Below, one piece after another: positions 25,724-50,425 of a DNA stretch of 64,000 nucleotides (within the stretch, counting starts at the first letter, position 1; each line of letters begins with the position of its first letter). The notes beneath the pieces are model-generated. The model had not been told where the DNA came from and did not search any database. It saw nothing but the letters and a program-made list of their open reading frames with translations. The DNA is from a virus. The stretch is taken from positions 1 to 64,000 of IMG/VR virus record IMGVR_UViG_3300033148_006706; one strand, 5' to 3'. A program made the translations under genes and the position numbers.

Positions 25724-26422
25724 ATGGGAGATTATACTATTAAAGAAGTACTTCAAATTACAGATAAATATTATCCAAATAGATTTACATATAAAGAACG
25801 TGATGTAGTAAAACGTATTGTTATAAAAGAAGTGAAAGAAGTACAACGACATGATATTCCTGGAGGCCCGAGAGTATATACGAAATATGTTATTGAAAGC
25901 AAATCATGGCCACAGTATTATCCTTATTTTACTAGAACAGATAGCAGAGGTAGACGTAGACGCTATCAAAGAAGTGTAGCTCATTATTATGATGTAATAT
26001 TCGAAACGGATAGATTGAGCTTAAATACTAAGAAATGGGTGGGTAGAGTTGGCAGTGGAAAAAAGTGGAATGCTAGACCGCCACAATCGCAAATAAAAAG
26101 TTTATATCCTGAAACAAGGGAAAAATTTAGAAGAAGGGCTAGAGGTAATCAACAAGAATATAAGAGACTTGTAGAAAGACATAAAAGAAGTGCACCGTAT
26201 CTTGATGTAGGCGATTATAATAGTAGAGTAAATGGAATTATGGGGGATTTTTGTTTTAGACAAGCTTGGGCATATTACACTCATGGCCATCTATTTGGAA
26301 GACAATATTATGGTAACGTACCTTCTTCAATTACAAATCCTAACGCTATTGTTTTTTTCGATAAACATCAATTAAATGTAATTGACCAACTTATGAGAAG
26401 AGGGATCTTAAAAGATGATTAA
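25724..26422 (+). CDS. Basic hypothetical protein with SWIM-like C-terminus lacking Cys ligands
   Basis: DFCFR..ITNP..FDKH. Confidence 0.6.
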   Translation: MGDYTIKEVLQITDKYYPNRFTYKERDVVKRIVIKEVKEVQRHDIPGGPRVYTKYVIESKSWPQYYPYFTRTDSRGRRRRYQRSVAHYYDVIFETDRLSLNTKKWVGRVGSGKKWNARPPQSQIKSLYPETREKFRRRARGNQQEYKRLVERHKRSAPYLDVGDYNSRVNGIMGDFCFRQAWAYYTHGHLFGRQYYGNVPSSITNPNAIVFFDKHQLNVIDQLMRRGILKDD

Positions 26423-26927
26423 GATTATAAATTTTAAAGAAAAGATTTATGGAAATATGGCAATAGTTTTCCATAGAACTAGCGTTTCAGATTTAGTAAA
26501 TAAAGTTTTTACAAGTGGATTTAAACCTGGTACAGGAGATAAATATGGAAGAGGATTTTATGCTACTTATGAACTTGAGTCACAAGAGCGACCAGAAATG
26601 AAGAAATATGGAACCTGGAAAAATGGAACTTGGAGAAATGGAGTCTGAAAAGACGGAACCTGGAAAAAAGGAATCTGGAAAGATGGGATTTGGGAAGACG
26701 GAGCTTGGGAAGGCGGGCAATGGGAAAAAGGAGTTTGGAAAAAAGGTACCTGGGAAAATGGGATTTGGGAGTATGGAACTTGGGAAAATGGAGATTGGAA
26801 AGATGGAATTTGGGAAAGTGGGGTGTGGAAAGGTGGAAAGATATGGAACCCTCAAACAAAAAAATATCAGTATAGTGACAAAAACCCTTATGATTGCGAA
26901 TGGAGCTTGAGTTATTATAAAAGATAA
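26415..26927 (+). pseudogene. GxW-repeat gene #1: truncated ART-like N-terminus plus 15 repeats, with an in-frame TGA at 26646
   Basis: FHRT..GFKPG.G.KYGRGFYAT, then GTWKN GTWRN GV* KD GTWKK... in frame to KNPYDCEWSLSYYKR*. Confidence 0.75.
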
Positions 26928-26960
26928 TAATATTTATGACATAAGGAGGGAGAGTAAAAC

Positions 26961-28253
26961 GTGATTAAAATATTTAAAAACCTGAACCTTCTTGAAAAGA
27001 AAGATCACATTATAAGAAAAATGCCCAATTTGACTAGTGAGCAGAAGGAAGAACTAATAAACTTTTTCAATAGACACCCAAATTATGAAAATAGGGTCGA
27101 TTGGAATAAGTGGAGAACTTTAACATACGAAGATTTTAAAGACATTCTTGAAATTGAATCCAAAACTCAAAGGAAGAAATCCGTTAAGACAAGAGGAATA
27201 AAAGGACTAAAAGAGGGTAAGGATTATATTCAATTGAAGAATTTGCCCGACGATATACAAGGATATATTCCTTTGAATTACGAGGCATCAAAATTTATTG
27301 CTTCTAGATATGTAGGAGGCATTGAAGGAAAATGGTGTACTGCATATCAAAAAACCGATAAATATTGGGAAGAATATAAAAGCTACGGGGTAATTTTTAT
27401 ATATTTAATCAAAGACAATGAAAAATATGCAATAGCTGTTTATCTCGACAATAAAACTTATGAAATTTATAATAAAGATGACGATAAAATTTCTTTTATA
27501 GAAGGCATTAATATTAAATCAGATATATTAAATGATCGAAATGTTTCTCTTTTTGAAAAAGTAAGAAAAGAAATCGGTTTTGAACATTGGATTACCAAAG
27601 CTGAAATATCAAAGGATGCTAAGTTTGAATATGGCGAATTTAGGCAAATAGTTTGGTTAGATGGGGCGTGGTATAAAGGGACTTGGTATAACGGAATTTG
27701 GAAAAATGGAATTTGGAAAAATGGAACTTGGGAAGATGGTTCTTGGAAGAGTGGAACTTGGAAGAGTGGAACTTGGAAGTTTGGAACTTGGGAAGATGGA
27801 ATATGGGAAAATGGAAATTGGATAATGGGATTATGGGAAGATGGAATTTGGAAAGACGGAACTTGGAAAGATGGAACTTGGGAGGATGGAACATGGAAAA
27901 GTGGAATTTGGAACAAAGGGGGATGGACAAAAGGGATATGGGAAGACGGAATATGGAAAAATGGAATTTGGGGTGGAGGAACCTGGGAAAGTGGAATTTG
28001 GAAGGATGGATCTTGGATTAAGGGGACGTGGATTAATGGAACTTGGGAATTTGGAACTTGGTATAACGGAATTTGGAAAAACGGAACTTGGAAAGATGGA
28101 ACTTGGATTGATGGGGAATGGAAAGACGGAATCTGGAAAGATGGAGTATGGAAAGGTGGAAAAATATGGGATCCTCAAATAGAAAAATATCAATATAGTG
28201 ACAAAAACCCCTATGATTGTGAATGGAGCTTAAGTTATTACAAAGAACAATAG
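26961..28253 (+). CDS. GxW pentapeptide-repeat protein, family A (WCTA domain), 33 repeats
   Basis: MIKIFKNLNLLEKK leader, GKWCTAY domain, GxWxx tract, KNPYDCEWSLSY cap. Confidence 0.9.
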   Translation: MIKIFKNLNLLEKKDHIIRKMPNLTSEQKEELINFFNRHPNYENRVDWNKWRTLTYEDFKDILEIESKTQRKKSVKTRGIKGLKEGKDYIQLKNLPDDIQGYIPLNYEASKFIASRYVGGIEGKWCTAYQKTDKYWEEYKSYGVIFIYLIKDNEKYAIAVYLDNKTYEIYNKDDDKISFIEGINIKSDILNDRNVSLFEKVRKEIGFEHWITKAEISKDAKFEYGEFRQIVWLDGAWYKGTWYNGIWKNGIWKNGTWEDGSWKSGTWKSGTWKFGTWEDGIWENGNWIMGLWEDGIWKDGTWKDGTWEDGTWKSGIWNKGGWTKGIWEDGIWKNGIWGGGTWESGIWKDGSWIKGTWINGTWEFGTWYNGIWKNGTWKDGTWIDGEWKDGIWKDGVWKGGKIWDPQIEKYQYSDKNPYDCEWSLSYYKEQ

Positions 28254-28285
28254 TATTTATATTATAAAGATGGTGGTTGAGGGGC

Positions 28286-29563: not shown

Positions 29564-29582
29564 TAATATGGGGGAGTAAAAC

Positions 29583-30725
29583 GTGATTAAAATATTTAAA
29601 AATCTGAACCTTCTTGAAAAAAAAGATCACATTATAAGAAAAATACCTAATTTGACTAGTGAACAGAAGGAGGAGCTAATAAATTTTTTCAATAAACACC
29701 CAAATTACGAGAACAGAATTGATTGGAATAAGTGGAAAACTTTAACATACGAAGATTTTAAAGACATTCTAGGGATTGAATCTAAGACTCAAAGGAAAAA
29801 ATCCGTTAAGATAAGTGGAATAAAAGGATTAAAAGAGGGCGAGGATTATATTCAATTGAAGAATTTGCCTGACGATACGCAAGGATATATCCCTTTGAAT
29901 TACGAGGCTTCAAAATTTATTGCTTCTAGATATGTAGGGGGTATCGAGGGGAAATGGTGTACAGCATACCAAAAAACTAGGGAATATTGGGAAGAATATA
30001 AAAGTGATAGGATAATTTTTATATATTTAATCAAAGACAATGAAAAATATGCAATAGCCGTTTATCCTGACAATAGAACTTATGAAGTTTATGATAAAAA
30101 TGATAACAAAATTTCTTATATTCCCGGTATTGATATTAAACGAGATATATTAAATAAAAAAAATATTTCTATTTTTGAAAAAATAAAAAGAGAAGTTGAA
30201 GACTACAAGCATTGGATTTATAAAGTTAAAATATCAAAAGACGCTAGATTTGAAATTGATAAGACGAATCGGGTATTTTGGTATGAAGGGACTTGGATAG
30301 ATGAGGTATGGGAAAGTGGAACCTGGAAAGATGGAACTTGGCTTGATGGTTATTGGACAGATGGAACTTGGGAGAATGGAACCTGGGAAAATGGTACTTG
30401 GGAATATGGAATCTGGGAAAATGGGGTTTGGAAAGACGGAATTTGGAAAGATGGAACTTGGTTGAAGGGGGTTTGGAAAGAGGGAATTTGGAAAAATGGA
30501 GTTTGGGAAAATGGAACTTGGGAAGATGGGACATGGGAGGATGGGTTTTGGGAAAATGGAATCTGGAAAGATGGAACTTGGAAAGATGGAACTTGGAAGG
30601 ATGGAATCTGGAAAGACGGAGTGTGGAAAGGTGGAAAGATATGGAACCCTCAAACAAAAAAATATCAGTATAGTAACAAAAACCCCTATGATTGTGAATG
30701 GGGTTTAAGCTATTACAAGAAATAA
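29583..30725 (+). CDS. GxW-repeat protein, family A
   Basis: Paralog. Confidence 0.9.
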   Translation: MIKIFKNLNLLEKKDHIIRKIPNLTSEQKEELINFFNKHPNYENRIDWNKWKTLTYEDFKDILGIESKTQRKKSVKISGIKGLKEGEDYIQLKNLPDDTQGYIPLNYEASKFIASRYVGGIEGKWCTAYQKTREYWEEYKSDRIIFIYLIKDNEKYAIAVYPDNRTYEVYDKNDNKISYIPGIDIKRDILNKKNISIFEKIKREVEDYKHWIYKVKISKDARFEIDKTNRVFWYEGTWIDEVWESGTWKDGTWLDGYWTDGTWENGTWENGTWEYGIWENGVWKDGIWKDGTWLKGVWKEGIWKNGVWENGTWEDGTWEDGFWENGIWKDGTWKDGTWKDGIWKDGVWKGGKIWNPQTKKYQYSNKNPYDCEWGLSYYKK

Positions 30726-30761
30726 TAATACTTATATTATAAAAATGGGGGGTTGAGGGGC

Positions 30762-31550: not shown

Positions 31551-31563
31551 AAAGAGGTGTGTT

Positions 31564-31930: not shown

Positions 31931-33163
31931 ATGGTTAGAATATTCAAAAATTTAAATTTACTCGAAAAGAAAGATCATATTATAAGAAAAATGCCCAATT
32001 TGACTAGTGAACAAAAAGAAGAGCTGATAAATTTCTTTAGTAGGCATCCTAACTATGAAAATAGAATTGATTGGAATAAGTGGAAAACTTTAACATACGA
32101 AGATTTTAAAGACATTCTAGGAATTGAATCAAAGACTCAAAGAAAGAAATCTGTTAAGATAAGTGGAATAAAAGGATTAAAAGAGGGCAAGGATTATATT
32201 CAACTGAAAGGGTTGCCTGACGATATGCAAGGATACATTCCTTTAAACTATGAGGCATCAAAATTTATTGCCTCTAAATATGTAGGAGGCATCAAAGGAA
32301 AATGGTGCACAGCATATCGAAAAAGTAAGGAATATTGGGAAAAATATACAAGTAAGAGTATAATCTTAATTTATTTGATTGGTAATAATACAAAATATGC
32401 AATATCCGTTTATCTAGATAATAGAACTTATGAAATTTATGATAGTAAGGATAACAAAATTTCTTATATTCCCGGTATTGATATTAAACGAGATATATTA
32501 AATAAAAGAAATATTTTTATTTTTGAAAAAATAAGAAGAGAAGTTGAAGACTACAAGCATTGGATTTATAAAGTTAAAATATTAAAAGGCGCTAGATTTG
32601 AAATTGATAAGACAAATCAAGTAATTTGGTATAAAGGAATTTGGATAGATGGAGTATGGGAAAGGGGAACTTGGGTTAATGGAGTTTGGCTTGATGGTTA
32701 TTGGACAGATGGAACTTGGGAAGACGGAACTTGGAAAGAGGGGACTTGGGAAAAGGGAACCTGGAAAGACGGAACCTGGGAAAAAGGAATTTGGTATGGC
32801 GGGATTTGGAAAGATGGGATCTGGGAATTTGGAACTTGGAAAGATGGAACTTGGAAAGGGGGGACTTGGGAAAAGGGTACTTGGGAAGACGGAACTTGGG
32901 AAGATGGCTTCTGGGAAAACGGAACTTGGGAAGATGGGACTTGGCTGGAGGGGGTTTGGAAAGATGGAACTTGGGAAGACGGAACTTGGGAAGATGGAAC
33001 TTGGAAATATGGAGTCTGGGAAGGTGGAGTTTGGAAAGATGGAATTTGGGAAAGTGGAGTGTGGGAAGGTGGAAAGATATGGAACCTGAAAACAAAAAAA
33101 TATAAATATAGCGATAAGAACCCATACGAATGTGAATGGAGTTTGAGTTATTACAAAAGATAA
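31931..33163 (+). CDS. GxW-repeat protein, family A
   Basis: Paralog. Confidence 0.9.
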   Translation: MVRIFKNLNLLEKKDHIIRKMPNLTSEQKEELINFFSRHPNYENRIDWNKWKTLTYEDFKDILGIESKTQRKKSVKISGIKGLKEGKDYIQLKGLPDDMQGYIPLNYEASKFIASKYVGGIKGKWCTAYRKSKEYWEKYTSKSIILIYLIGNNTKYAISVYLDNRTYEIYDSKDNKISYIPGIDIKRDILNKRNIFIFEKIRREVEDYKHWIYKVKILKGARFEIDKTNQVIWYKGIWIDGVWERGTWVNGVWLDGYWTDGTWEDGTWKEGTWEKGTWKDGTWEKGIWYGGIWKDGIWEFGTWKDGTWKGGTWEKGTWEDGTWEDGFWENGTWEDGTWLEGVWKDGTWEDGTWEDGTWKYGVWEGGVWKDGIWESGVWEGGKIWNLKTKKYKYSDKNPYECEWSLSYYKR

Positions 33164-34384: not shown

Positions 34385-34435
34385 ATTGTAAATAATTAAA
34401 GTTTTATTTGCTTAATTACTAATATAATAGAACGA

Positions 34436-34888
34436 ATGGGAAATAGTATGGAAAATAAAAAGATAATAGAAGAATTCAACAGGCTTCTTAAAGTAAGACT
34501 CTATAAGCAAGGAGAAAATCAGTGGCGCCTTGTACCGGTGCAAAAACGTGATGGTACACAAATTAGAAGAGGAGAAATTATATTCAGAGGAGATGAAGAA
34601 AAGCTTAAATTACTTCTCCGTAGATTAAAAGCTAAAGATAATGAAACCGATCCGCCGTCGGTAAAGAATAGAACATATCAACAAATGATAGACGGAGCAA
34701 AGGATAAAAGCGATCCGTGGATTTGGATCGAACTAAAAGATTGGAATAAATATAGAAATAATAATAAGATAACTACTATGGAAAATTATAAAACTTTAAA
34801 TCTTGAAATTAATAAACCGGTAAAAATAGAACAGAAAGACGGGGCTCTTATTTTAGAGAGAGGGGATAAAATACGTATATTACAATAA
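34436..34888 (+). CDS. Hypothetical protein with C-terminal LxRGDKI module
   Basis: Late motif at 34417; LEINKPVKIEQKDGALILERGDKIRILQ. Confidence 0.7.
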   Translation: MGNSMENKKIIEEFNRLLKVRLYKQGENQWRLVPVQKRDGTQIRRGEIIFRGDEEKLKLLLRRLKAKDNETDPPSVKNRTYQQMIDGAKDKSDPWIWIELKDWNKYRNNNKITTMENYKTLNLEINKPVKIEQKDGALILERGDKIRILQ

Positions 34889-34918
34889 AACAGAATACAT
34901 AGGTGGATAATATTAATA

Positions 34919-35281
34919 ATGAAAGCTATATTTAAAGTTTATGAACAAGAGACATTGGAGAATTATTTTAAAAAAGAACTAACATGGACTCTTTCAGAAA
35001 AGTTAGAATATAATATTGCTATACAGAATCAAACAAAAATCATAAATTTTAGCGATATTGATAATATAAAACTTATACTTTTTTCAAGTACAAATAATGA
35101 AATATTTAAAGTAAGAATTAGCACTTCTACAGATACTATAACATTTACAGTAGATGATATATTCTTATTTACCCCGACCGACTTAATGATAAATAGTATA
35201 ACAGAAATAGCATTGGTTGAGGAATTGGGCAATGAAGTAGAGGTAAAAACGATATTTTATGGAGAATTACAAGAAAGCTAA
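34919..35281 (+). CDS. Hypothetical protein
   Basis: ORF. Confidence 0.6.
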   Translation: MKAIFKVYEQETLENYFKKELTWTLSEKLEYNIAIQNQTKIINFSDIDNIKLILFSSTNNEIFKVRISTSTDTITFTVDDIFLFTPTDLMINSITEIALVEELGNEVEVKTIFYGELQES

Positions 35282-35302
35282 ATTATAAAAAAGGATTATA
35301 AT

Positions 35303-35551
35303 ATGACAGATATTGAAATTTTTTTACAAAGAAACATGGACAGGATGGATAGGGACACGTTGATAGGGGTGATGGCCGATAAATTTAATTTGAGCTTGGA
35401 ACAAGCAGAAGAAATAATTATGGAAAGGGAAAAAATAAGAAAAAAAGAATCCCTTATAACAGTAACAAGATCTTTTTTAATAGAGACGAATAATATAGTT
35501 TTTGCTTTAGAAAAAGGGGATAAAATTAATATATTACATAGAGTTGAGTAA
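35303..35551 (+). CDS. Small protein with LxKGDKI module
   Basis: ITVTRSFLIETNNIVFALEKGDKINIL. Confidence 0.65.
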   Translation: MTDIEIFLQRNMDRMDRDTLIGVMADKFNLSLEQAEEIIMEREKIRKKESLITVTRSFLIETNNIVFALEKGDKINILHRVE

Positions 35552-36528
35552 TGCCATTACCAGAACCAAGAAAAGATGAAAGTAAACAAGATTTTATTAG
35601 TAGATGTGCAGGAGACAGCACAATGAATAGTGAGTTTCCTGATCAAAAACAAAGACTTGCGGTTTGTTATAGTCAATGGAAAAAACAAAAAAAAGAAGAA
35701 ATTATAAAACAAATAGAAAAGAAAAAAGAGAATGTAATTGAAATAACTAGACCGGTGAAAATAGAACAAAAAAATAAGATTATTTTCTTAGAAAAAGGGG
35801 ATAAGATTACACTATTAGAAGTGTCTCCTTTAAGAGAGTTTAATAATTTTTTTATAGAAGCAAGTATTTCAAGTGATGCAATAATCGAATGGGATCAAAG
35901 GAATGATACCCCAACCTGGAAGAGGGGAATTTGGGGAAGTGGAACATGGAAAGAAGGAGATTGGGAAAATGGAACTTGGAAAGATGGAACTTGGAAAGAT
36001 GGAACTTGGGAACTTGGAATTTGGGAGAGGGGGACTTGGGAAGATGGTATTTGGGAAAGCGGTATTTGGAAAAGTGGGACTTGGAAAGATGGTACTTGGA
36101 AAGGTGGAACTTGGATAAAAGGAACCTGGGAATTCGGAACTTGGATAGAAGGAACCTGGAGAAAGGGTACTTGGAAAAATGGAGTTTGGAAGTATGGAAC
36201 TTGGTATGGTGGGATTTGGGAAGATGGAATTTGGATGTATGGAGTTTGGAATGATGGAATCTGGAAAAATGGGACTTGGAAAGATGGAACCTGGGAAAAT
36301 GGAACTTGGTTATACGGAACATGGGAAAGCGGAACTTGGAAAGATGGAACTTGGGAAAATGGAACTTGGAAAGATGGAACTTGGATCGACGGGGTATGGA
36401 TAGACGGAATTTGGGAAGGTGGAGTATGGAAAGGTGGGAAAATATGGAATCCTAAAATAAGAAATTATGAATATAGCAACAAAAATCCATACGAATGTGA
36501 ATGGAGTTTAAGTTATATGAAGAGGTGA
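35551..36528 (+). CDS. GxW-repeat protein with MPLPEP..FISRC..QRLAVCYSQW domain and LxKGDKI module
   Basis: A different N-terminal domain on the same repeat tract and cap. Confidence 0.88.
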   Translation: MPLPEPRKDESKQDFISRCAGDSTMNSEFPDQKQRLAVCYSQWKKQKKEEIIKQIEKKKENVIEITRPVKIEQKNKIIFLEKGDKITLLEVSPLREFNNFFIEASISSDAIIEWDQRNDTPTWKRGIWGSGTWKEGDWENGTWKDGTWKDGTWELGIWERGTWEDGIWESGIWKSGTWKDGTWKGGTWIKGTWEFGTWIEGTWRKGTWKNGVWKYGTWYGGIWEDGIWMYGVWNDGIWKNGTWKDGTWENGTWLYGTWESGTWKDGTWENGTWKDGTWIDGVWIDGIWEGGVWKGGKIWNPKIRNYEYSNKNPYECEWSLSYMKR

Positions 36529-36536
36529 TTGTTATT

Positions 36537-37124: not shown

Positions 37125-37159
37125 TTTAAAAAAATGTAAAAAAAGTATATATTAATAAT

Positions 37160-37720: not shown

Positions 37721-37770
37721 TTGTAAACCTATTACTAATATACTATAGACATTAGAAATAGGTTAGCTTA

Positions 37771-39704: not shown

Positions 39705-39779
39705 TATTTTAAGATTTTTTTACTAAAATATCATAGGAATATAATATTTAAAATTGTTATAATAGAGAGGATAAGAATA

Positions 39780-40355: not shown

Positions 40356-40357
40356 TT

Positions 40358-41911
40358 ATGAGATTTATAACACGAGAGATAAGATCTCTAGCGAAGATTC
40401 ATCCTAGAAGGATTGATGAAGCTTTTCAAGTTCATTCGTTAAAAAAAGCAGCTAAGAATATATTCAGTTATCTAGGTAAAAAGGTAGGTTGGCGAGAACT
40501 TGTTGGTATATCTGAAGATATAATGGTTCCAACATATTATTCGTTAACAGGTATAGGTAATTTTGTAGGATTTGAAGCATATCTTACTTCTGGTGGAAAA
40601 ATAAGATTGGATTTTTCTATTAAAGATGGATCAGGAAAAGTATATTCAGTATCGTGGTTTGAAAAACCTGCTAGAAAAGCAACTAAATATATTAAAATTC
40701 CCCCGCAATTTAACATAGTTGAAGTGTTAGATCATGTAATTGTCGCATTAACTGGTGAATATAGTCAATTGTTTTCAGAATCTATTTCTTTCAGAGAAAG
40801 AGTTAGAAAATTTGATTTTGTAAGAGAGTGGTTGACGAACACTCCAGATAAAGGACGAATCTATAGTGAAATTAAGAGAAGAGGAACCGATTGGGACGGT
40901 TTATTAGTTCAATATTATGAATATCACGAGTCTAAAGGGCAACCGCGTTCTAAAGTGAGCTTAAATAAAGTAACTTTTCAAGTTTATTGTAGTAAAATTT
41001 TCAAGGAGGAGGGGCAAGAAAATTTAAGTAATAGTATACCTCATGTAAATGTTTCGGCTGGGGTAGAAGAACAAGCGGTTAGTAGCGATGTTGAGTCAGA
41101 AAACCTATTCCAAAATGAGCTTTTAGAAAATGAGCATATTGAAAAATTTGAGTATTTAAAATTTCAATTATATAATATTAAAAACGGGGATCCGAATACG
41201 TTATCTTTATATATTTATGGGAGAGGTGGAATTGGAAAAAGCTACTGGGCAAAAAAGATATTAGGCGATTTACCCAATACTTATTATACTAAAGGCAAGA
41301 TAAAAGGATATCAAGGCCTTCTTCAATTGCTCTACGATCATAAAGATAATGAAATATTGATATTAGATGATATAATTAGCAAAGAGGATATGAAAAATAC
41401 CACAATTGAAAACATTTTAAAAGCTGTACTAGATCCAGAACCTCCTAGACGAGTAAAAGTTGAAAGAAGGATACCTAGTTCAGAAATAAGTTCTGCAGAA
41501 GCTCCGATATCAGGTGAAGAGGACATAGTTGATTTTACATCTGAACAAGGAATAATTGTTGAAGATAATTTATATAATTTTGAATTTAATTCAAGAGTAG
41601 TTTTTATTACAAATTATCCTGAAAAACCGCAAGCCTTTGGTGACCGTGTTTTAAGTATATCTATGTTATTTTCTGATACGCAAGTGGCCGATATTATAAA
41701 AAACGTTTTGGATAAAATTGAACCCGTAGATGTAGGAATAGAGAATAAACAATTTATTCTAAATTGGTTGCAAGAAAGATATAGAGGAAGACGTAAATTA
41801 CAACAATTGAGTTTTCGTGTTTTTCAAAAGGTGTTGAGCATATATATGGGTGCTAAACATCTGGGTGGGAATAAATGGCAGAAATGGGCTTTTTATGAAT
41901 TAGCTTCATAA
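40358..41911 (+). CDS. Phage AAA+-type P-loop ATPase with large N-terminal extension
   Basis: YGRGGIGKS, ILILDD, NILKAVLD, VFITN, DR. Confidence 0.8.
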   Translation: MRFITREIRSLAKIHPRRIDEAFQVHSLKKAAKNIFSYLGKKVGWRELVGISEDIMVPTYYSLTGIGNFVGFEAYLTSGGKIRLDFSIKDGSGKVYSVSWFEKPARKATKYIKIPPQFNIVEVLDHVIVALTGEYSQLFSESISFRERVRKFDFVREWLTNTPDKGRIYSEIKRRGTDWDGLLVQYYEYHESKGQPRSKVSLNKVTFQVYCSKIFKEEGQENLSNSIPHVNVSAGVEEQAVSSDVESENLFQNELLENEHIEKFEYLKFQLYNIKNGDPNTLSLYIYGRGGIGKSYWAKKILGDLPNTYYTKGKIKGYQGLLQLLYDHKDNEILILDDIISKEDMKNTTIENILKAVLDPEPPRRVKVERRIPSSEISSAEAPISGEEDIVDFTSEQGIIVEDNLYNFEFNSRVVFITNYPEKPQAFGDRVLSISMLFSDTQVADIIKNVLDKIEPVDVGIENKQFILNWLQERYRGRRKLQQLSFRVFQKVLSIYMGAKHLGGNKWQKWAFYELAS

Positions 41912-41928
41912 AATCAAAGAGAAAAAAA

Positions 41929-42282
41929 GTGAAAAGAAAATTAGAAATTTATATGTATAGTAACAACTGGGTTTTTGATGAACCAGGGGTTTGTGAAAAA
42001 GAACCGTTTGTTATGGGCAGTTCAGAAATTATAACAAATGTAGCAAAGAAAAAAGGTATTAAAAATTTACGAGAGAAAGTTTTGTTACTTATATTTAGCG
42101 ATTCTCCTTTTCAAGGGGCAGATTGTAAATTATTTTGGGATGGTGAATCTTTAAATGGTAATTGGTATGTCAACTCTGAAACAAATGAAAAAGGATGGCT
42201 ATGTCCGGTGTTATTATATTATTTTAATAAAGCACCAGAGAATATTTATTTTTCTGTAGAAGAAAAAATAAATTGTTATTAG
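41929..42282 (+). CDS. DUF6717-like protein
   Basis: WVFD..EPFV.G, FS..PF.G, GNWY, GWLCP.L..YF..AP..IY. Confidence 0.7.
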   Translation: MKRKLEIYMYSNNWVFDEPGVCEKEPFVMGSSEIITNVAKKKGIKNLREKVLLLIFSDSPFQGADCKLFWDGESLNGNWYVNSETNEKGWLCPVLLYYFNKAPENIYFSVEEKINCY

Positions 42283-42301
42283 CAAACAAGGGGATTGATT
42301 G

Positions 42302-43774
42302 ATGATCATTATAAGAAAATTAAATGAATATTTATCAGGATTTGATTATCGTCTTCCTGATGACCCCGAATTGATTTTATACGATTTCTATTTCTTAACT
42401 ACTTACGGGAACGATATAGAAACAAATATGCCTGAGGCGGACTTCGCAATAAAGGAGGCTTCTGATAAAATTGTAGAGAGTCTTCATGCCCACATGTTAA
42501 AGGCAGTAAAATATGCGCTATGTAGTGAAATTAGACATATTTTCGATGGATTAAGAGATATTGAATCTCTTGAAGAATTAGCAAAAATGGATAAAAAAAT
42601 AAATAGATTTGTTAATTCATATTCTAGAAATTATGAATTAAGTACTGGTATTGATCTTACGAATCGAGAACTTCGAGGTGTACTTACAAAAGAAACAGAA
42701 TCAAGCAGACTAGCCTCTTATGAAGCTATTATTGAAACACAAAAAGAATTAAATATGACAAATATGGAATTGGCTAAAATTTTTAGTAGCCTGTTTTTAG
42801 AATTAGATTGGAAACGTGATTACGGGGGAAGAGCTTGGGATATGATAGTTGATGGATATAAAATGCTTCTGAAAGCTAAGAGGAAAAATGAAAAAATCAT
42901 TGCCATCGATCACACTTATGATTTACAGCATAATACTGATACGGTTTTTAATAAACTGCAGATATACTATAAAGATAGCTCTGGATATGGGTGGATTAGA
43001 AGAGCGTTAAATTGGAAAAAGGATGTAGAAGATATTCGTTTTTTTTATGAAAAAGTATCACCTCAACTACGGAGAATAGTAGCTTTTATAGCGTATAATG
43101 TGTACGGACTTACAATGGAAGATAAATCTTATCAGCATAGAGTTTGGACAGGCGGAATTTGGGCGGGGGGAACTTGGAATGATGGAATTTGGAAAAATGG
43201 GATTTGGAAAGATGGAACTTGGAATGACGGGGCTTGGATTAACGGAACCTGGGAGAAAGGAGCCTGGAGAAATGGAATTTGGAAAAATGGAATATGGCAA
43301 AATGGAACCTGGGAGCTTGGAACCTGGGAAAATGGTACTTGGGAATATGGAATTTGGGAAAACGGTACTTGGAAATATGGAACTTGGTTTTACGGAACTT
43401 GGAAAAATGGAACTTGGGAAGACGGGGAATGGAAAGATGGGGTCTGGGAATATGGAGTTTGGAAAAATGGAGTTTGGAAGTATGGAACTTGGTATAATGG
43501 AACCTGGGAAAACGGGACTCGAGAAAGTGGAACATGGCTAGAAGGGGTTTGGAAAAATGGAGTTTGGGAAGATGGTACTTGGTTGTATGGAGTTTGGAAA
43601 GATGGGGTTTGGAATGATGGAATCTGGGAAAATGGGATTTGGGAAGATGGAATTTGGAGAAACGGAGCTTGGGAGGGTGGCAAAATATGGAATCCTAAAA
43701 CAAGAGAATATGAATATAGTAATAAAAACCCATACAAGTGTGAATGGAGTTTAAGCTATAGAAAAGAGCGATAA
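42302..43774 (+). CDS. GxW-repeat protein, family B (DHxYDLQHNT domain)
   Basis: LYDFYFL, YGGRAW, IDHTYDLQHNTDTVFNK, repeat tract, KNPYKCEWSLSY. Confidence 0.9.
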   Translation: MIIIRKLNEYLSGFDYRLPDDPELILYDFYFLTTYGNDIETNMPEADFAIKEASDKIVESLHAHMLKAVKYALCSEIRHIFDGLRDIESLEELAKMDKKINRFVNSYSRNYELSTGIDLTNRELRGVLTKETESSRLASYEAIIETQKELNMTNMELAKIFSSLFLELDWKRDYGGRAWDMIVDGYKMLLKAKRKNEKIIAIDHTYDLQHNTDTVFNKLQIYYKDSSGYGWIRRALNWKKDVEDIRFFYEKVSPQLRRIVAFIAYNVYGLTMEDKSYQHRVWTGGIWAGGTWNDGIWKNGIWKDGTWNDGAWINGTWEKGAWRNGIWKNGIWQNGTWELGTWENGTWEYGIWENGTWKYGTWFYGTWKNGTWEDGEWKDGVWEYGVWKNGVWKYGTWYNGTWENGTRESGTWLEGVWKNGVWEDGTWLYGVWKDGVWNDGIWENGIWEDGIWRNGAWEGGKIWNPKTREYEYSNKNPYKCEWSLSYRKER

Positions 43775-43792
43775 AACAAAGGTCTGTCAGCA

Positions 43793-45343
43793 ATGATTAA
43801 AATAATTCGAGTAAAGCCAAAAATAAAAGAAATCTTCTCAAACTTTGTATACAGAATGCCTGATGATCCTGAGTTGATTTTATACGATTTTTATTTCTTA
43901 ACTACTTACGGAAAAAATATAGAAACAAACATGCCCGAAGCAGATTTTGCGATAAACGAAGCGGTCGAACAGATTATTGAAAATCTTCATGCACACATGT
44001 TAAAGGCTGTAAAATATGCTCTATGCGCTGAGATTCGTCATATTTTTGATTCTACAGCAGCTGAATCATTAAAGCAATTAGTTGAAAAAAACAAGAACAT
44101 TGGAACCTTTATCAAGACATATTATAAAAAATATATCACTTTTACAGAAATAAGTAGAACACCGCTTGATTTCTTACTTGATGATAGATCGGGGGAGGCT
44201 GACAGATTAAGAAACGTTCTTTCTAAAGAGACAGATTCAAAAAGAAAAAGCTCATACAGGGCAGTTACAGAGACACAAAAAGATTTAAAGATAACAAACT
44301 CTGAACTGTCAAAAATATTTGAATACGTATTCTTAAAGCTTGTTTGGCAACCACAATTCGGAGGCCCAGCATGGGCCGATATTGCCAAAGCTTATTATAG
44401 ACTTCTAAGGGCTAAGAGGAAAAACGAAAAAATCATTGCCATTGACCATGCCTATGATTTACAGCATAACACCGATACGGTTTTTAATAAGTTGCAGATA
44501 TACTATAAAGATGGTTATAGTTGGATTAAAGATGCTTTGGATTGGAAAAGAGATGTAAAGGATATTCGATCTTTTTACAATAAAGTTTCTCCTCAATTAA
44601 GGAGAATAGTAGCCTTCATAGCATACAATGTATATGGGCTTACAATGGAGGGAGGAACTCCTCGTTCAGTTGATCAAGATAAAATCTGGACGAGGGGGCT
44701 CTGGAAGGGGGGAACCTGGACAGGAGAAATTTGGAAATATGGAATTTGGGAGAAAGGAACTTGGAAAGGCGGGACTTGGAAAGATGGAATTTGGAAAGAC
44801 GGAACTTGGGAAGATGGAATTTGGAAAGACGGAATTTGGAAAAATGGAACTTGGAAAAATGGAACTTGGAAGGGTGGAACTTGGGAAAGTGGAAGTTGGA
44901 GAAATGGAATTTGGGAAGATGGGATTTGGAAAGAAGGTGATTGGGAAAATGGAACTTGGAAAGATGGATTCTGGATGTACGGATATTGGAAAAATGGTAC
45001 CTGGAAGAGCGGAACTTGGAAAGATGGGATTTGGAAAAGTGGAACCTGGAAAAATGGAACTTGGAGATATGGAACTTGGAAAAGTGGAACTTGGAAAAAT
45101 GGAACCTGGAGGGATGGGATCTGGGAAAATGGAACTTGGGAAGATGGAACTTGGTTTAAAGGGGTTTGGAAAAATGGAACTTGGAAAAATGGAACTTGGG
45201 AAAATGGATTTTGGAAAGATGGGGTTTGGGAAGGCGGAATATGGAAGAGTGGGGAGATATGGAATCCGGAGACAGATGAATATGAATATAGTGATAGAAA
45301 TCCATACGAATGTGAATGGAGTTTAAGTTATAGAAAAGGATAA
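43793..45343 (+). CDS. GxW-repeat protein, family B
   Basis: Paralog. Confidence 0.9.
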   Translation: MIKIIRVKPKIKEIFSNFVYRMPDDPELILYDFYFLTTYGKNIETNMPEADFAINEAVEQIIENLHAHMLKAVKYALCAEIRHIFDSTAAESLKQLVEKNKNIGTFIKTYYKKYITFTEISRTPLDFLLDDRSGEADRLRNVLSKETDSKRKSSYRAVTETQKDLKITNSELSKIFEYVFLKLVWQPQFGGPAWADIAKAYYRLLRAKRKNEKIIAIDHAYDLQHNTDTVFNKLQIYYKDGYSWIKDALDWKRDVKDIRSFYNKVSPQLRRIVAFIAYNVYGLTMEGGTPRSVDQDKIWTRGLWKGGTWTGEIWKYGIWEKGTWKGGTWKDGIWKDGTWEDGIWKDGIWKNGTWKNGTWKGGTWESGSWRNGIWEDGIWKEGDWENGTWKDGFWMYGYWKNGTWKSGTWKDGIWKSGTWKNGTWRYGTWKSGTWKNGTWRDGIWENGTWEDGTWFKGVWKNGTWKNGTWENGFWKDGVWEGGIWKSGEIWNPETDEYEYSDRNPYECEWSLSYRKG

Positions 45344-45380
45344 TTATTATTAGAAAGTTATAAAAAGGGAAGTAATAATA

Positions 45381-47144
45381 ATGATTAAAATAGTTCGAGT
45401 AAAACCGAAAATAAAAGAAATTTTCTCAAACTTTGTATATAGGATGCCTAAAGATCCCGAGTTAATTCTGTACGATTTTTATTTTTTGACTACTTACGGG
45501 AAAGATATAGAAACAAATATGCCTGAGGCTGACTTTGCAATAAAGGAGGCTTCTGATGAAATTGTAGAATCCCTTCATACCCACATGCTAAAGGCAGTAA
45601 AATATGCCCTGTGTGCCGAGATTCGTCATATTTTTGATGCTATAGCAACCGAATCATTGAAACGATTGGTTGGGGAAAACAAGAATATAGGGGCATTTAT
45701 TAAAGTGTACTATAGAAAATATCTTGCCTTTATAGAAATAGGTAAAGTACCGCTTGACTTTTTACTCGATGATAGATCGGAGGAGGCTGGCAGATTAAGA
45801 AACGTTCTCTCTAAAGAAACTGATTTGAAAAGGAAAAGCTCATATAGAGCGATTGCAGAAACGCAAAAAGAGTTGAAGATAACAAATTCGGAACTGTCAA
45901 AAATATTTGAATATTTATTCTTAAATCTTATTTGGTATTCACAATTCGGAGGTTTTGCATGGGCCGATATTGCCGAAGCTTATTATAGACTTTTAAAGGC
46001 TAAGAGGAAAAATGAAAAAATCATTGCTATAGATCATGCCTATGATTTGCAACACAATACCGATATAGTTTTCAATAAATTACGGCTATATTACAAAGAT
46101 GGTTATAGTTGGATTAAAAGAGCACTGGATTGGAAAAAGAATGTGAAGGATATTCGATCTTTTTACAAAAAAGTTTCTCCTCAATTAAAGAGAATAGTAG
46201 CCTTCATAGCATACAATGTATACGGGCTTACAATGGAGGGGGGAACTCCTCGTTCAGTTGATCAAGATAGAATCCGGACAGGAAGATCCTGGGAGGGAGG
46301 AACCTGGACAGGGGGAATCTGGGAAAACGGGACTTGGGAAAAAGGAACCTGGGAAAACGGAACCTGGAAAAACGGAACTTGGAAACTTGGAATCTGGGAA
46401 CTTGGGACTTGGGAAAATGGAACTTGGGAGTCTGGGACTTGGGAATATGGAACCTGGAAAAATGGAGTCTGGAAAGACGGAGATTGGGAAGATGGAATTT
46501 GGAAGGGAGGAATTTGGGAATATGGAACTTGGATGAGTGGAGTCTGGAAATTTGGAACTTGGAAAGACGGAACATGGGAAAATGGGGTTTGGGAAAAAGG
46601 AATTTGGGAAAAAGGAACTTGGAAAAGTGGAGCTTGGAAGAACGGGGTTTGGAAAAATGGAACTTGGAAAGATGGAAGATGGGAAGATGGAATCTGGAAA
46701 GATGGAACTTGGGAAGACGGGGTTTGGAAAAATGGAACTTGGGAAAATGGGACTTGGGAAAATGGAATTTGGTTAGAAGGGATCTGGAAAAATGGAACTT
46801 GGAAAAACGGAACTTGGGAATATGGATTCTGGAAAAATGGGGTTTGGAAAGATGGAACTTGGGAAGATGGAACATGGGGAGAGGGGGTCTGGAAAGAAGG
46901 AATTTGGAAGGGAGGAATTTGGGAATACGGAACTTGGAATAATGGAATTTGGAAATTCGGAACCTGGAATAATGGAATTTGGAATAATGGGATTTGGGAA
47001 GATGGAGTGTGGAAAGATGGGGTTTGGAAAGATGGAGCATGGAAAGGTGGGGAAATATGGAATCCAAAGACAAATGAATATGAATATAGTAATAAAAACC
47101 CATACGAATGTGAGTGGGGTTTAAGTTATAGAAAAGAGCAATAA
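45381..47144 (+). CDS. GxW-repeat protein, family B
   Basis: Paralog. Confidence 0.9.
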   Translation: MIKIVRVKPKIKEIFSNFVYRMPKDPELILYDFYFLTTYGKDIETNMPEADFAIKEASDEIVESLHTHMLKAVKYALCAEIRHIFDAIATESLKRLVGENKNIGAFIKVYYRKYLAFIEIGKVPLDFLLDDRSEEAGRLRNVLSKETDLKRKSSYRAIAETQKELKITNSELSKIFEYLFLNLIWYSQFGGFAWADIAEAYYRLLKAKRKNEKIIAIDHAYDLQHNTDIVFNKLRLYYKDGYSWIKRALDWKKNVKDIRSFYKKVSPQLKRIVAFIAYNVYGLTMEGGTPRSVDQDRIRTGRSWEGGTWTGGIWENGTWEKGTWENGTWKNGTWKLGIWELGTWENGTWESGTWEYGTWKNGVWKDGDWEDGIWKGGIWEYGTWMSGVWKFGTWKDGTWENGVWEKGIWEKGTWKSGAWKNGVWKNGTWKDGRWEDGIWKDGTWEDGVWKNGTWENGTWENGIWLEGIWKNGTWKNGTWEYGFWKNGVWKDGTWEDGTWGEGVWKEGIWKGGIWEYGTWNNGIWKFGTWNNGIWNNGIWEDGVWKDGVWKDGAWKGGEIWNPKTNEYEYSNKNPYECEWGLSYRKEQ

Positions 47145-47162
47145 AATAAGGAGCTATCAGCA

Positions 47163-48953
47163 ATGATTAAAATAATTCAAGTAAAATCAAAAATGAAAGA
47201 AATTTTCTCAAATTTTGTATACAGGATGCCCAAAGATCCTGAGTTAATTTTGTACGATTTTTATTTCTTGACTACTTACGGGAACGATATAGAAACAAAT
47301 ATGCCTGAGGCTGATTTTGCAATAAAAGAGGCTTCTGATGAAATTGTTGAAAATCTTCATGCACACATGCTAAAGGCAGTAAAATATGCCCTGTGTGCCG
47401 AGATTCGTCATATTTTTGATGCTACAGCAATTGAATCATTAAAACAATTGGTTGAGAAAAACAAGAACATTGGGGCTTTTATTAAAATGTACTATAAAAA
47501 ATATCTCACCTTTACAGATGTAGGTAAGGCCCCACTTGATTTTTTACTTGATGATAGATCGGGCGAGGCTGACAGATTAAGAAATGTTCTCTCTAAAGAA
47601 ACCGATTTAAGAAGAAAATGCTCATACAGAGCAGTTACAGAGACACAAAAAGAGTTGAGGATAACAAACTCTGAACTGTCAAAAATATTTGAATACCTAT
47701 TTTTGAATCTTGTCTGGCAATCACAATTCGGTGGTTCAGCATGGGCTGATATTGCCAAATCTTATTATATGCTTTTAAAAGCCAAGAGGAAAAATGAAAA
47801 AATCATCGCTATTGATCATGCTTACGATTTGCAACATAATACCGATACGGTTTTCAATAAATTACAGTTATATTATAAAGACGGTTATAGTTGGATTAGA
47901 AATGCTTTAGATTGGAAAAGGGATGTAGATGATATTCGTTCTTTTTATGAAAAAGTTTCCCCCCAGCTAAGGAGAATAGTGGCATTTATAGCATACAATG
48001 TATATGGGATTACGATGGAGGGGTGGCTTTCCCATTCAGTTGATCAAGATAAAATTTGGACAGGGGGGTCCTGGAAAGGAGGAACTTGGACAGGAGGGAC
48101 TTGGGAAAATGGGACATGGGAAAAAGGAATTTGGGAAAACGGTATTTGGGCGGGTGGAACTTGGGTAAGTGGGGCCTGGAAAGATGGAGTTTGGGAAAGT
48201 GGAACTTGGAAATTCGGAACTTGGACGGATGGGACTTGGGAAAATGGAACTTGGGAAAATGGGATTTGGGAATATGGAACTTGGAAAGATGGAACTTGGA
48301 TATATGGAATTTGGAAAAACGGAACTTGGTTATTTGGAACTTGGTATGACGGGATTTGGAAAAAGGGGGTCTGGATATATGGAACTTGGAAAAATGGAAC
48401 TTGGGAAGATGGAACTTGGAAAAATGGAACCTGGAAAGATGGAACTTGGAGAAATGGAGTCTGGAAAGATGGAACCTGGAAAAATGGAGTCTGGGAACTT
48501 GGAACCTGGAAAGATGGAGTTTGGGAAAGTGGAATTTGGAAATATGGAACTTGGAAGCTTGGAATCTGGGAACTTGGGACTTGGGAAAATGGAATTTGGG
48601 AAGATGGGGATTGGGAAGATGGAACCTGGAAAAATGGAATTTGGAAAGGTGGGGATTGGGAAGATGGAACCTGGAAAGACGGGATCTGGGAACTTGGAAC
48701 TTGGAAAGATGGAGTTTGGAAAAGTGGAACTTGGGAGGATGGAGTTTGGAAAAGTGGAACTTGGGAAAATGGAGCCTGGACAATGGGGACTTGGGAAGAT
48801 GGGATCTGGGAAAATGGAACTTGGAAAGAAGGAACCTGGAAAGACGGGATATGGAAAGGTGGGGGGATATGGAATCCAGAAACAAAAGAATATGAATATA
48901 GTAATAAAAACCCATACGAGTGTGAGTGGAGTTTAAGCTATAGAAAGAGATAA
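47163..48953 (+). CDS. GxW-repeat protein, family B (longest tract, about 53-54 units)
   Basis: Paralog. Confidence 0.9.
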   Translation: MIKIIQVKSKMKEIFSNFVYRMPKDPELILYDFYFLTTYGNDIETNMPEADFAIKEASDEIVENLHAHMLKAVKYALCAEIRHIFDATAIESLKQLVEKNKNIGAFIKMYYKKYLTFTDVGKAPLDFLLDDRSGEADRLRNVLSKETDLRRKCSYRAVTETQKELRITNSELSKIFEYLFLNLVWQSQFGGSAWADIAKSYYMLLKAKRKNEKIIAIDHAYDLQHNTDTVFNKLQLYYKDGYSWIRNALDWKRDVDDIRSFYEKVSPQLRRIVAFIAYNVYGITMEGWLSHSVDQDKIWTGGSWKGGTWTGGTWENGTWEKGIWENGIWAGGTWVSGAWKDGVWESGTWKFGTWTDGTWENGTWENGIWEYGTWKDGTWIYGIWKNGTWLFGTWYDGIWKKGVWIYGTWKNGTWEDGTWKNGTWKDGTWRNGVWKDGTWKNGVWELGTWKDGVWESGIWKYGTWKLGIWELGTWENGIWEDGDWEDGTWKNGIWKGGDWEDGTWKDGIWELGTWKDGVWKSGTWEDGVWKSGTWENGAWTMGTWEDGIWENGTWKEGTWKDGIWKGGGIWNPETKEYEYSNKNPYECEWSLSYRKR

Positions 48954-48991
48954 CAAAATAATAAAATTATAGAAAAAAGGGGTTGCCAGCA

Positions 48992-50425
48992 ATGATTAAA
49001 ATAATTCGAGTAAAACCAAAAATAAAAGAAATTTTCTCAAATTTTGTATACAGGATGCCTGATGATCCTGAGTTAATTCTGTATGATTTCTATTTCTTGA
49101 CTACTTATGGGAAAGATATAGAAACAAACATGCCTGAGGCTGATTTTGCGATAAACGAAGCGGTCGAACAGATTATTGAAAATCTTCATACCCACATGTT
49201 GAAGGCAGTAAAATATGCCTTGTGTGCCGAGATTCGTCATATTTTTGATGCTACAGCAACCGAATCATTAAAACAATTAGTTGAAAAAAATAAGAACATT
49301 AGAACCTTTATCAAGACATATTATAAAAAATATATCACTTTTACAGAAATAAGTAGAACACCGCTTGACTTTTTACTCGATGATAGATCGGGCGGGGCTG
49401 ATAGATTAAGAAACGTTCTTTCTAAAGAAACAGATTCAAAAAGAAAAAGCTCATACAGGGCAATTACAGAGACACAAAAAGAGTTAAAGATAACAAACTT
49501 GGAACTGTCAAAAATATTTGAATACCTATTTTTGAATCTTGTCTGGCAATCACAATTCGGTGGTTCAGCATGGGCTGATATTGCTAAATCTTATTACATG
49601 CTTTTAAAAGCCAAAAGGAAAAATGAAAAAATCATTGCCATTGATCATGCCTATGATTTGCAGCATAATACTGATACGGTTTTTAATAAGTTGCAGATAT
49701 ACTATAAAGATGGTTATAGTTGGATTAGAGATGCTTTGGATTGGAAAAGGGATGTAGAAGATATTCGATTTTTTTACAATAAAGTATCGCCTCAACTACG
49801 GAGAATAGTAGCTTTTATAGCGTACAATGTATATGGGATTACGATGGAGGATAAACTTTATCAACATGGAGTTTGGACAGGGGGAGCTTGGAAAGGTGGA
49901 ATTTGGACAGGAGGGACTTGGAAAAAAGGTACTTGGATATATGGAACATGGGAAAATGGTATTTGGGAAGACGGAACTTGGGAAAGTGGAACTTGGAAAA
50001 ACGGAACTTGGAAAAACGGAACTTGGAAATTCGGAACTTGGGTAGACGGAACTTGGAAAAGAGGTACTTGGGAAAACGGGGTTTGGCAAAATGGAACATG
50101 GAAAGATGGAACTTGGATATATGGAATTTGGAAAAGTGGAATTTGGAAAAATGGATTCTGGGAGGACGGAATTTGGGAACTTGGAACTTGGGAAAATGGA
50201 GATTGGAAGAACGGAACTTGGAGGGATGGGATTTGGAAAGATGGAATTTGGAAAAATGGAATATGGCAAAATGGAACCTGGGAAAAAGGAGTTTGGAAAG
50301 ATGGAGTTTGGAAAGATGGAATTTGGAAAAACGGCAAAATATGGAACTCAGAGACAAGAGAATATGAATATAGTAATAAAAACCCATACGAGTGTGAGTG
50401 GAGTTTAAGTTATGGTAAAAAATAA
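48992..50425 (+). CDS. GxW-repeat protein, family B
   Basis: Paralog; ATG 48992. Confidence 0.9.
   Translation: MIKIIRVKPKIKEIFSNFVYRMPDDPELILYDFYFLTTYGKDIETNMPEADFAINEAVEQIIENLHTHMLKAVKYALCAEIRHIFDATATESLKQLVEKNKNIRTFIKTYYKKYITFTEISRTPLDFLLDDRSGGADRLRNVLSKETDSKRKSSYRAITETQKELKITNLELSKIFEYLFLNLVWQSQFGGSAWADIAKSYYMLLKAKRKNEKIIAIDHAYDLQHNTDTVFNKLQIYYKDGYSWIRDALDWKRDVEDIRFFYNKVSPQLRRIVAFIAYNVYGITMEDKLYQHGVWTGGAWKGGIWTGGTWKKGTWIYGTWENGIWEDGTWESGTWKNGTWKNGTWKFGTWVDGTWKRGTWENGVWQNGTWKDGTWIYGIWKSGIWKNGFWEDGIWELGTWENGDWKNGTWRDGIWKDGIWKNGIWQNGTWEKGVWKDGVWKDGIWKNGKIWNSETREYEYSNKNPYECEWSLSYGKK

Follow-up and report, generated by a model that had tools for sequence, protein, structure and literature searches.

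A tandem expansion of genes sharing a G-x-W-x-x repeat module in a divergent phage genome

Thirteen genes with a common C-terminal array

The window analyzed here is a stretch of 64,000 nucleotides, the first 64 kb of the 139,904-bp IMG/VR virus record IMGVR_UViG_3300033148_006706, which has direct terminal repeats and is rated complete. Its G+C content is about 30%, and its predicted genes all lie on the plus strand. Within positions 26415-50425 are 13 same-strand genes (12 long frames and one broken frame) that have in common a C-terminal array of five-residue G-x-W-x-x units (hereafter, the GxW module) and carry different N-terminal domains (N-domains). They belong to a large phage protein family that has no name and that has undergone a lineage-specific expansion in tandem here. 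An initial annotation, made from the letters and open frames alone, had placed the 13 genes at these positions on the plus strand and had counted six WCTA domains (one internally deleted), five DH.YDLQHN domains, one MPLPEP/FISRC domain, and one short fragment, all of which our analysis bears out. In the rest of the 139,904-bp genome we detected no further copies of the repeat-gene domains outside 26415-50425. The genes are as follows.

26415-26927, plus strand: decayed copy; first ~60 residues of a YHRT..YG.GFY (ART-PolyVal-like) domain, ~15-21 units, intact cap
26961-28253, plus strand: WCTA N-domain (residues 1 to ~219), N-cap HWI.KAEIS, 36 units, cap; 430 aa
28277-29563, plus strand: WCTA domain, 33 units, cap; likely start ATG 28286
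29583-30725, plus strand: WCTA domain, 24 units, cap; 380 aa
30753-31550, plus strand: WCTA gene lacking N-domain residues 116-201 in frame, with the WC.A core lost; 17 units, cap
31931-33163, plus strand: WCTA domain, 30 units, cap; 410 aa
33197-34384, plus strand: WCTA domain, 27 units, cap; 395 aa
35551-36528, plus strand: MPLPEP/FISRC helical N-domain, ~28-residue KGDKI tag region, 35 units, cap; 325 aa; structure modeled
42299-43774, plus strand: DH.YDLQHN N-domain (~275 aa; most divergent copy, 68% identity), 37 units, cap
43793-45343, plus strand: DH.YDLQHN domain (residues 1-296), 38 units, cap; N-domain modeled
45381-47144, plus strand: DH.YDLQHN domain, 51 units, cap; 587 aa
47163-48953, plus strand: DH.YDLQHN domain, 54 units, cap; 596 aa
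48983-50425, plus strand: DH.YDLQHN domain, 32 units, cap; likely start ATG 48992

Eleven of the 13 genes are intact, one has an in-frame deletion of 86 residues, and one is decayed. The N-domain of the gene with the deletion (30753) aligns only to WCTA residues 1-115 and 202-224. The decayed gene (26415-26927) is a single reading frame interrupted by a TGA at 26646-26648 where a Trp codon is expected, and its N-domain is cut to about 60 residues. No suppressor tRNA that would account for the in-frame TGA was found in the window. The first 59 residues are 80% identical to residues 1-59 of the metagenome protein P0009, one of the relatives in which the YHRT-type domain is intact (~220-250 residues), and the array comes directly after them; cap and array are similar to those of the adjoining WCTA genes.

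The repeat unit and its caps

Parsed backwards from the cap in 5-residue units, the arrays contain, in gene order, 15, 36, 33, 24, 17, 30, 27, 35, 37, 38, 51, 54, and 32 units. The register is unbroken in every array, with no indel in any intact one (17-54 units). The cap, GG.IWNP.T..YEYS.KNPYECEWSLSY, takes up about 30 residues at the protein end and is nearly identical in all 13 genes; its invariant residues are I, W, Y, Y, S, N, P, C, W, L, S, and Y. An array of ~15 to 54 units closed by a conserved cap, as first described, is thus present in 13 of 13 genes. Over the wider family (6265 units in 243 arrays), the unit consensus is G-[TIV]-W-[KE]-[NDG], with G at 98% of first positions and W at 92% of third positions. 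Position 2 is T (39%), I (17%), or V (11%), position 4 is K (28%) or E (26%), and position 5 is N (26%), D (24%), or G (15%). The near-invariance of G and W was therefore described correctly, but the variation of the other three positions is limited to narrow alphabets.

Many family members have a motif W[IL].KA.IS just before the array, which looks like an N-terminal cap, and there is strong support for treating the shared C-terminal module (N-cap, unit array, and C-cap) as an autonomous domain. Relatives carry alternative C-caps, for example of the ..GYDK.G.YH..GDSPDKW and ..SPINPKEYF types. Each genome has one cap type whatever the N-domain. This is seen in the window's 13 genes, in a 112-kb record (six genes with the GDSPDKW cap, of which four are WCTA-type, one is stand-alone, and one is of another kind), and in two genes of a 290-kb phage. 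From genome to genome, a given N-domain is found with different caps. The pattern suggests either that the module spreads inside a genome through duplication and recombination or that the cap has a partner peculiar to each genome. Cassette exchange between WCTA and DH arrays has only marginal evidence behind it; the strongest cross-group block shows 91% identity across 90 nt, a value that 1 of 20 shuffles of unit order also reached.

Divergence and selection among the paralogues

The longest exact nucleotide string common to any two of the genes is 83 nt, and synonymous differences between paralogues amount to 27-76%. We compared the share of amino acid-changing differences with that of silent differences (pN/pS). 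In the N-domains pN/pS is ~0.05-0.15 at a pS of 0.27-0.76, which indicates strong purifying selection. At the G and W positions of the array pN is ~0, compared with a pN/pS of 0.64-0.88 at positions 2, 4, and 5, which is the difference between variable and G/W positions that the initial annotation had proposed computing. There is strong support for a frozen core with surface residues and array length that change freely. By these sequence comparisons, the 13 genes are old, maintained, and distinct paralogues rather than an assembly artifact.

Predicted fold of the module

We modeled the 35551 protein with AlphaFold2 (AF2), using an alignment of 18 rows. This model's predicted local distance difference test score (pLDDT) is >90 for residues 200-320, and strands recur with a period of 15 residues. 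In an exhaustive structural comparison of this model, right-handed three-sided beta-helices rank first, with the autotransporter passengers TibA (4q1q; Z 16.1, root mean square deviation [rmsd] 2.9 Å over 196 residues) and Ag43 (7kob/7koh; Z 16.0, rmsd 2.5 Å over 184 residues) as the best matches; overall, these passengers match at a Z of 16 with rmsd 2.5-2.9 Å over 184-199 residues. Their sequence identity to the model is 11-13%, so the resemblance is one of fold class only. The rungs of TibA and Ag43 are ~19-20 residues long and have no Trp core or pentapeptide register, and autotransporters carry a signal peptide and a translocator barrel, whereas the GxW proteins have neither, nor any Pfam autotransporter match. 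The pentapeptide-repeat protein EfsQnr reaches only Z 10.3 against the same model, and left-handed helices fit poorly (rmsd ~11). Foldseek searches of the PDB with the 35551 and DH models gave no match at an E value of ≤0.001.

Because AF2 is known to produce confident but false beta-solenoids for repeat sequences (PMC11795689), we turned to the sequences by themselves. Multiplying the charges at position 4 of paired units gives a strongly negative product at a lag of three units only, with a z score of -14.6 against within-array shuffles in the 243 arrays, -7.7 in representatives at ≤50% identity, and -3.7 in the window's 12 arrays. Lags 2, 4, and 5 show no signal and lag 6 a weakly positive one; of the charged pairs at lag 3, 63% have opposite signs, compared with 44-49% at other lags. 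Such an anticorrelation is what would be expected if K/E salt bridges formed ladders from turn to turn of a stacked 15-residue coil, and block duplication cannot explain it because duplication yields positive correlation. We therefore take three units (15 residues) per turn as well supported, if unproven, by sequence and model together. The module is most likely a right-handed three-sided beta-solenoid with Trp in the core and Gly and Asn/Asp/Gly at the corners; positions 2 and 4 most likely face the solvent, with position 4 alternating between K and E on stacked turns. The beta-solenoid chassis of invariant core and fast-changing surface that had been suggested for these genes thus agrees with the AF2 model, the three-unit charge periodicity, and pN/pS. 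A Trp at every fifth residue in tandem is also known from the tryptophan repeat of Nanog, where it makes protein-protein contacts (PMC5446312), but that repeat belongs to a eukaryotic transcription factor, has ten units with no Gly at i-2 and no caps, and is not homologous to the GxW module.

A large and unnamed phage family

A word-indexed search with the 35551 protein returned 454 relatives, all annotated as "hypothetical." When 1.84 billion cluster representatives (clusters at 50% identity) were scored with a profile built from the cap and ten units, 2014 protein clusters were hit at E ≤1e-3 and 1018 at E ≤1e-10; they are mostly viral, with proteins of 124-3738 aa. The architecture had been thought to have no described counterpart; the window instead holds a local expansion of this large family. 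Among 250 array proteins, 190 consist of an N-domain, then a C-terminal array, then a tail of <60 residues, and the N-regions fall into at least ~40 similarity groups, five of them large, including WCTA (39), DH (38), and YHRT..YG.GFY (22). The search for other fusion partners proposed by the initial annotation thus supports exchange of N-domains on the same module. Stand-alone modules also exist, for example among the G001/G002/G005 genes and in a cultured phage described below. In IMG/VR the module occurs in at least 37 viral loci, and in the ESM-Atlas the clusters nearest to the solenoid in shape are 100% viral.

Scans of the repeat proteins against Pfam, NCBIfam, and PHROGs gave no match, with the sole exception of phrog_20946, of unknown function, for the DH domain. 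PDB sequence searches with single proteins and profiles gave nothing significant, an exact-sequence look-up of protein P0003 returned no record, and Pfam recognized only LysM, BNR, and propeller domains in three giant relatives. We found no paper describing the GxW repeat, which is no proof of its absence from the literature.

The cultured-phage homologue that we examined is gp54 of Pseudomonas phage PspYZU05 (KY971610.1; L038:5896-6507), a stand-alone module, 203 residues long, whose units are a Cys-rich variant; the record has nine matching places. It is annotated as "phosphatidylinositol 4-phosphate 5-kinase 5-like," a label inherited from similarity to MORN repeats (PF02493). We reject this label as a misannotation, as Pfam gives no MORN support. 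The string G-x-W-x-x-G is common to MORN and GxW repeats, and there is a weak PDB sequence match to RSP1 (E 0.5), but the MORN unit is ~23 residues long (YxGxWxxGxxxGxG) and forms hairpins, whereas the GxW period is exactly 5 and gives no Pfam MORN match.

Copy number varies among relatives, a comparison that had also been proposed at the outset. Other viral records have one to six module genes each. One contig, L045, is syntenic with window positions 40358-53211 and contains homologues of the NTPase gene, the middle part of the phosphatase gene, 52396, and 52711; in place of this phage's five DH-type genes it has a single GxW gene, of the YHRT type.

N-terminal domains and their other partners

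The D-H-x-Y-D-L-Q-H-N motif of the DH domain is almost invariant. The AF2 model of this domain (from 43793) is all-alpha (pLDDT 88, predicted template modeling score 0.86), and the best PDB match in a structural comparison has a Z of only 5.2 (VIA-align); in BFVD it matches four unnamed viral proteins only (probability 1.0, template modeling [TM] score 0.46-0.48). The domain occurs in 87 proteins with many different C-termini, including GxW arrays with various caps, a dual-specificity phosphatase (DSP), SH3_15, MIB_HERC2, and CusF-like domains. For example, P0137, from another phage, is a DH domain fused to a DSP of the type found directly after the five DH genes here. In relatives, the WCTA domain (invariant W-C-x-A, D-Y, P, W, and K) precedes leucine-rich repeat (LRR)-like repeats, DUF285 repeats, or GxW arrays. 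Exchange therefore runs both ways, with WCTA and DH as constant N-terminal modules that have many alternative C-termini. Of the proposed chassis with exchangeable domains, the swapping of N-domains holds, but not the one-way picture. Since WCTA and DH carry other binding-type C-termini in relatives, the GxW module appears to fill a slot for binding-type repeats.

The YHRT family is marked by invariant H-R-T and Y-G-x-G-F-Y motifs. Among named ESM clusters, ART-PolyVal and AcrIF11 come nearest; both are ADP-ribosyltransferases (ARTs), and their scores of 0.85-0.87 lie below the 0.9 level. No Pfam or PDB profile or hidden Markov model (HMM) match was found for the domain. The label "ART-like" first given to 26415 is consistent with these neighbors but has no HMM match behind it, and we keep it as a lead only. 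Other family members have Amidoligase_2 and PLD-like N-domains. The N-terminal part of 35551 includes a tag of ~28 residues, I.I...V.I....LEKGDKI.L, which AF2 models as a small hairpin at low confidence and which recurs in late proteins at 34736-34906, 35399-35539, and 19176-19304. A tblastn search of cultured phages with the MPLPEP/FISRC leader gave no match. ESM-Atlas shape matches of this N-terminal part to prohead protease, portal, or DUF2213 (TM 0.19-0.28) were too weak and were not used.

The same M-I-K-I leader stands on several unrelated proteins (26415, 26961, 29583, 43793, 45381, 47163, and 53212, and L045:5111), and a Glu at residue 9, 12, or 13 is nearly invariant in the YHRT, WCTA, and DH families, even between distant relatives. 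The leader and the Glu could be a common processing or targeting signal or a mere translation-start preference in an AT-rich genome.

Genomic setting and late-type motifs

The structural genes that place the repeat genes in the window are as follows.

22632-24071, plus strand: major head protein
54792-56369, plus strand: tail sheath
58807-61122, plus strand: tape measure

These positions put the repeat genes after the head module and before the tail module of a myovirus. Most neighboring proteins have no family match in Pfam and PHROG scans, which marks the phage as very divergent; apart from the major head protein, the head-module proteins of 17029-25647 (603, 526, 154, 104, 205, 179, and 247 aa) have no match in either database, and an IMG/VR search with the capsid protein found no close relatives of the phage.

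The motif TACTAATAYR occurs 15 times within window positions 14246-57014, always on the plus strand, compared with 1.1 occurrences expected. Its sites include 22484, 24884, 34417, 37733, 51844, 54009, 54747, 56376, and 57005, and it lies just upstream of the capsid gene (22484), the sheath gene (54747), and other tail and structural genes. To judge from these positions, it looks like the late promoter of this phage. Three of the sites head operons that contain repeat genes.

24884-24893, plus strand: late-type motif TACTAATATA, heading an operon with 24904, 25724, and the first seven repeat genes
34417-34426, plus strand: late-type motif, heading the operon 34436-37720, which contains 35551
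37733-37742, plus strand: late-type motif, heading the operon 37771-51818 with its five DH-type genes

No terminator-like site was found between these motifs and their repeat genes; the only such site near 24884 is at 24103, after the capsid gene. Because the motif precedes both structural genes and repeat clusters with no terminator between, we infer that the repeat genes are co-transcribed late with the structural genes, which seems reasonable for motif evidence of this kind. The late motifs that had been noted at 24884, 34417, and 37733, between the head and tail modules, are confirmed as sites of a motif that also stands before capsid, sheath, and tail genes.

The DH-gene operon is closed by one further recognizable gene.

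50475-51818, plus strand: dual-specificity phosphatase (Pfam CDKN3/DSPc/Tc-R-P, E 1e-14 to 1e-11), directly downstream of the DH genes in the same operon

This phosphatase has an acidic, coiled C-terminal extension of 280 residues, of which a separate homologue exists in L045 (5111-5917). Among the late genes between the repeat clusters lies a P-loop NTPase (40358-41911) with weak RNA_helicase/DUF5906 matches and assignment to phrog_1250; an 840-residue homologue occupies the same place in L045. Directly upstream of the first repeat gene and in the same late operon, 25724-26422 encodes a very basic protein of 232 residues with an RGRRRRYQR run. No family matched it, and it might be a virion protein that is internal or binds DNA.

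Possible roles of the expanded family

Since the genes appear to be transcribed late with the structural genes, their products are most likely meant for the virion or the next infection. By analogy with T4 Alt and MuF-fused effectors, we tentatively favor, at a little under even chances, a role as modular effectors or binders that serve the particle or the next infection. In favor of it are the late context, a core that is frozen under a free surface, the conserved heads, and the flux in copy number. The solenoid would be a rigid scaffold with a diversifiable surface, acting as a binding or targeting rod in the slot that LRR-like, DUF285, SH3, or MIB/HERC2 modules take on related N-domains. 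The N-domains would be the working heads, one type ART-PolyVal-like and the others WCTA and the all-alpha DH.YDLQHN domain. The proteins may be packaged or ejected to modify the host, much as T4 Alt or MuF-fused effectors do, with each paralogue aimed at a different target. New combinations would arise by duplication and recombination within the genome, which would also account for one cap type per genome.

Late-encoded, head-packaged effectors have a precedent (PMC5512222). Like T4 Alt, MuF-fused toxins, and the polyvalent proteins described there, the GxW genes lie beside virion genes, apparently late, and join an effector to a constant module. The likeness has limits, in that late timing is here read from a motif, there is one head domain per protein compared with 2-15 in polyvalent proteins, and profile searches find no MuF, portal, or known packaging domain in the GxW proteins. 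A more specific version, in which the Trp-core solenoid is a general-purpose handle of tailed phages, a thin, rigid, and self-capped rod that loads diverse enzymes into the particle for the next host and whose surface is altered in each paralogue to suit another host target, giving this phage ~11 differently aimed effectors, strikes us as rather improbable.

Several points weigh against the effector or binder reading. No fusion to MuF or a portal and no HMM-level match to polyvalent-protein domains was found, and the head protease, scaffold, and portal are themselves not recognized by Pfam or PHROGs among the head-module proteins. A pN/pS of ~0.7-0.9 at surface positions fits relaxed constraint on a spacer equally as well as diversifying selection, and the cap-anchored units compared may not be orthologous. 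With two of the 13 copies degraded, the phage does not need all of them. The model of the solenoid comes from only 18 alignment rows and from a method with the failing noted above, and PspYZU05 gp54 lies among replication or early-type genes rather than structural ones.

That last observation fits an account in which the proteins are never packaged and act inside the cell in host takeover or counter-defense, with the solenoid binding or decoying host proteins, such as defense sensors, and the N-domain modifying the bound target. The expansion of the family and its variable copy number, the fast-evolving surface on a frozen core, and the ART-PolyVal/AcrIF11-like lead for one N-domain also fit it. 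However, the three clusters stand behind the capsid/sheath/tail motif and between the head and tail modules, which is late for takeover, and no known anti-defense family was matched, although PADLOC was not run. We regard this account, one of the two main rivals, as unlikely.

The late position between head and tail genes would also suit accessory adhesins or decorations on the virion surface, where the C-cap docks on capsid or tail, the solenoid forms a stalk of adjustable length (~25-85 Å for 17-54 units at 4.8 Å per turn), and the N-domain faces outward. A cap that is constant within a genome and differs between genomes is what a genome-specific virion partner would lead one to expect. The closest folds are adhesin beta-helices (TibA, Ag43, pertactin, and tailspikes), and very long relatives carry LysM, BNR, and propeller domains. 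Nevertheless, the N-domains look enzymatic or helical, unlike known receptor-binding folds (the best Z for DH being that 5.2), phage fibers normally have a conserved N-terminal anchor and a variable C-terminus, the reverse of the arrangement here, and stand-alone modules exist that have no domain to display. These considerations make such a role improbable.

We also weighed whether the genes encode ordinary pentapeptide-repeat proteins (PF00805/PF13599; Rfr, including MfpA, Qnr, Np275/276, and SV2), four-sided DNA mimics like MfpA and Qnr that act on gyrase or DNA-binding host proteins. The two groups have in common strict 5-residue tandem units, a bulky central residue with a small one two positions before, and a right-handed beta-solenoid with end caps. 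Pentapeptide_4 and the SV2 luminal domain are matched below threshold by long relatives (17-23 bits, with cut-offs at 29-38), a family profile matches the SV2C luminal domain at E 0.26, and there is the EfsQnr match given above. The consensus here, however, is G-x-W-x-x rather than A-(D/N)-L-x-x, and the similarity in sequence is faint. The window proteins reach no Pfam pentapeptide model even at E 0.1, and long relatives score 17-19 bits against a cut-off of 38. Pentapeptide-repeat proteins have four units (20 residues) per turn compared with a predicted three (15) here, as judged from an AF2 strand period of 15 and a charge periodicity that is present at three units and absent at four. The GxW surface has roughly balanced K/R and D/E and is not markedly acidic, and the module forms the C-terminal part of proteins with many phage N-domains, unlike pentapeptide-repeat proteins. 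We consider this identity very improbable.

Finally, a misassembled repeat or decaying junk left by neutral expansion is scarcely credible, since the repetitive sequence and two degraded copies that suggest it stand against exact sharing of at most 83 nt, 27-76% synonymous differences, eleven long open frames, strong purifying selection on N-domains and caps, absolutely conserved G and W, and recurrence of the family in hundreds of independent assemblies.

Implications for phage biology

The GxW module is real, unnamed, and within the known class of beta-solenoid repeat modules, unusually expanded in this phage and widespread elsewhere. The structural half of the initial interpretation, a solenoid with swappable N-domains, stands, whereas the supposed uniqueness of the architecture to this phage does not survive the 2014 clusters. 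The module occurs in ~2000 phage-metagenome clusters with no name or family model. Because it is unnamed, and mislabeled as a lipid kinase in a cultured phage, defining it would correct many genome annotations. Should the predicted geometry prove right (15 residues per turn, three core Trp ladders, and outer K/E ladders), the module would be a new minimal class of beta-solenoid, next to the four-sided pentapeptide-repeat fold and of interest to protein designers. The two-way shuffling links several large phage-specific domains, the WCTA, DH.YDLQHN, W.SCM-type, and ART-PolyVal-like domains, as apparent working parts of one modular system. The expansion to 13 genes here, compared with a single gene in a syntenic relative, offers a natural contrast for testing the role of the family.

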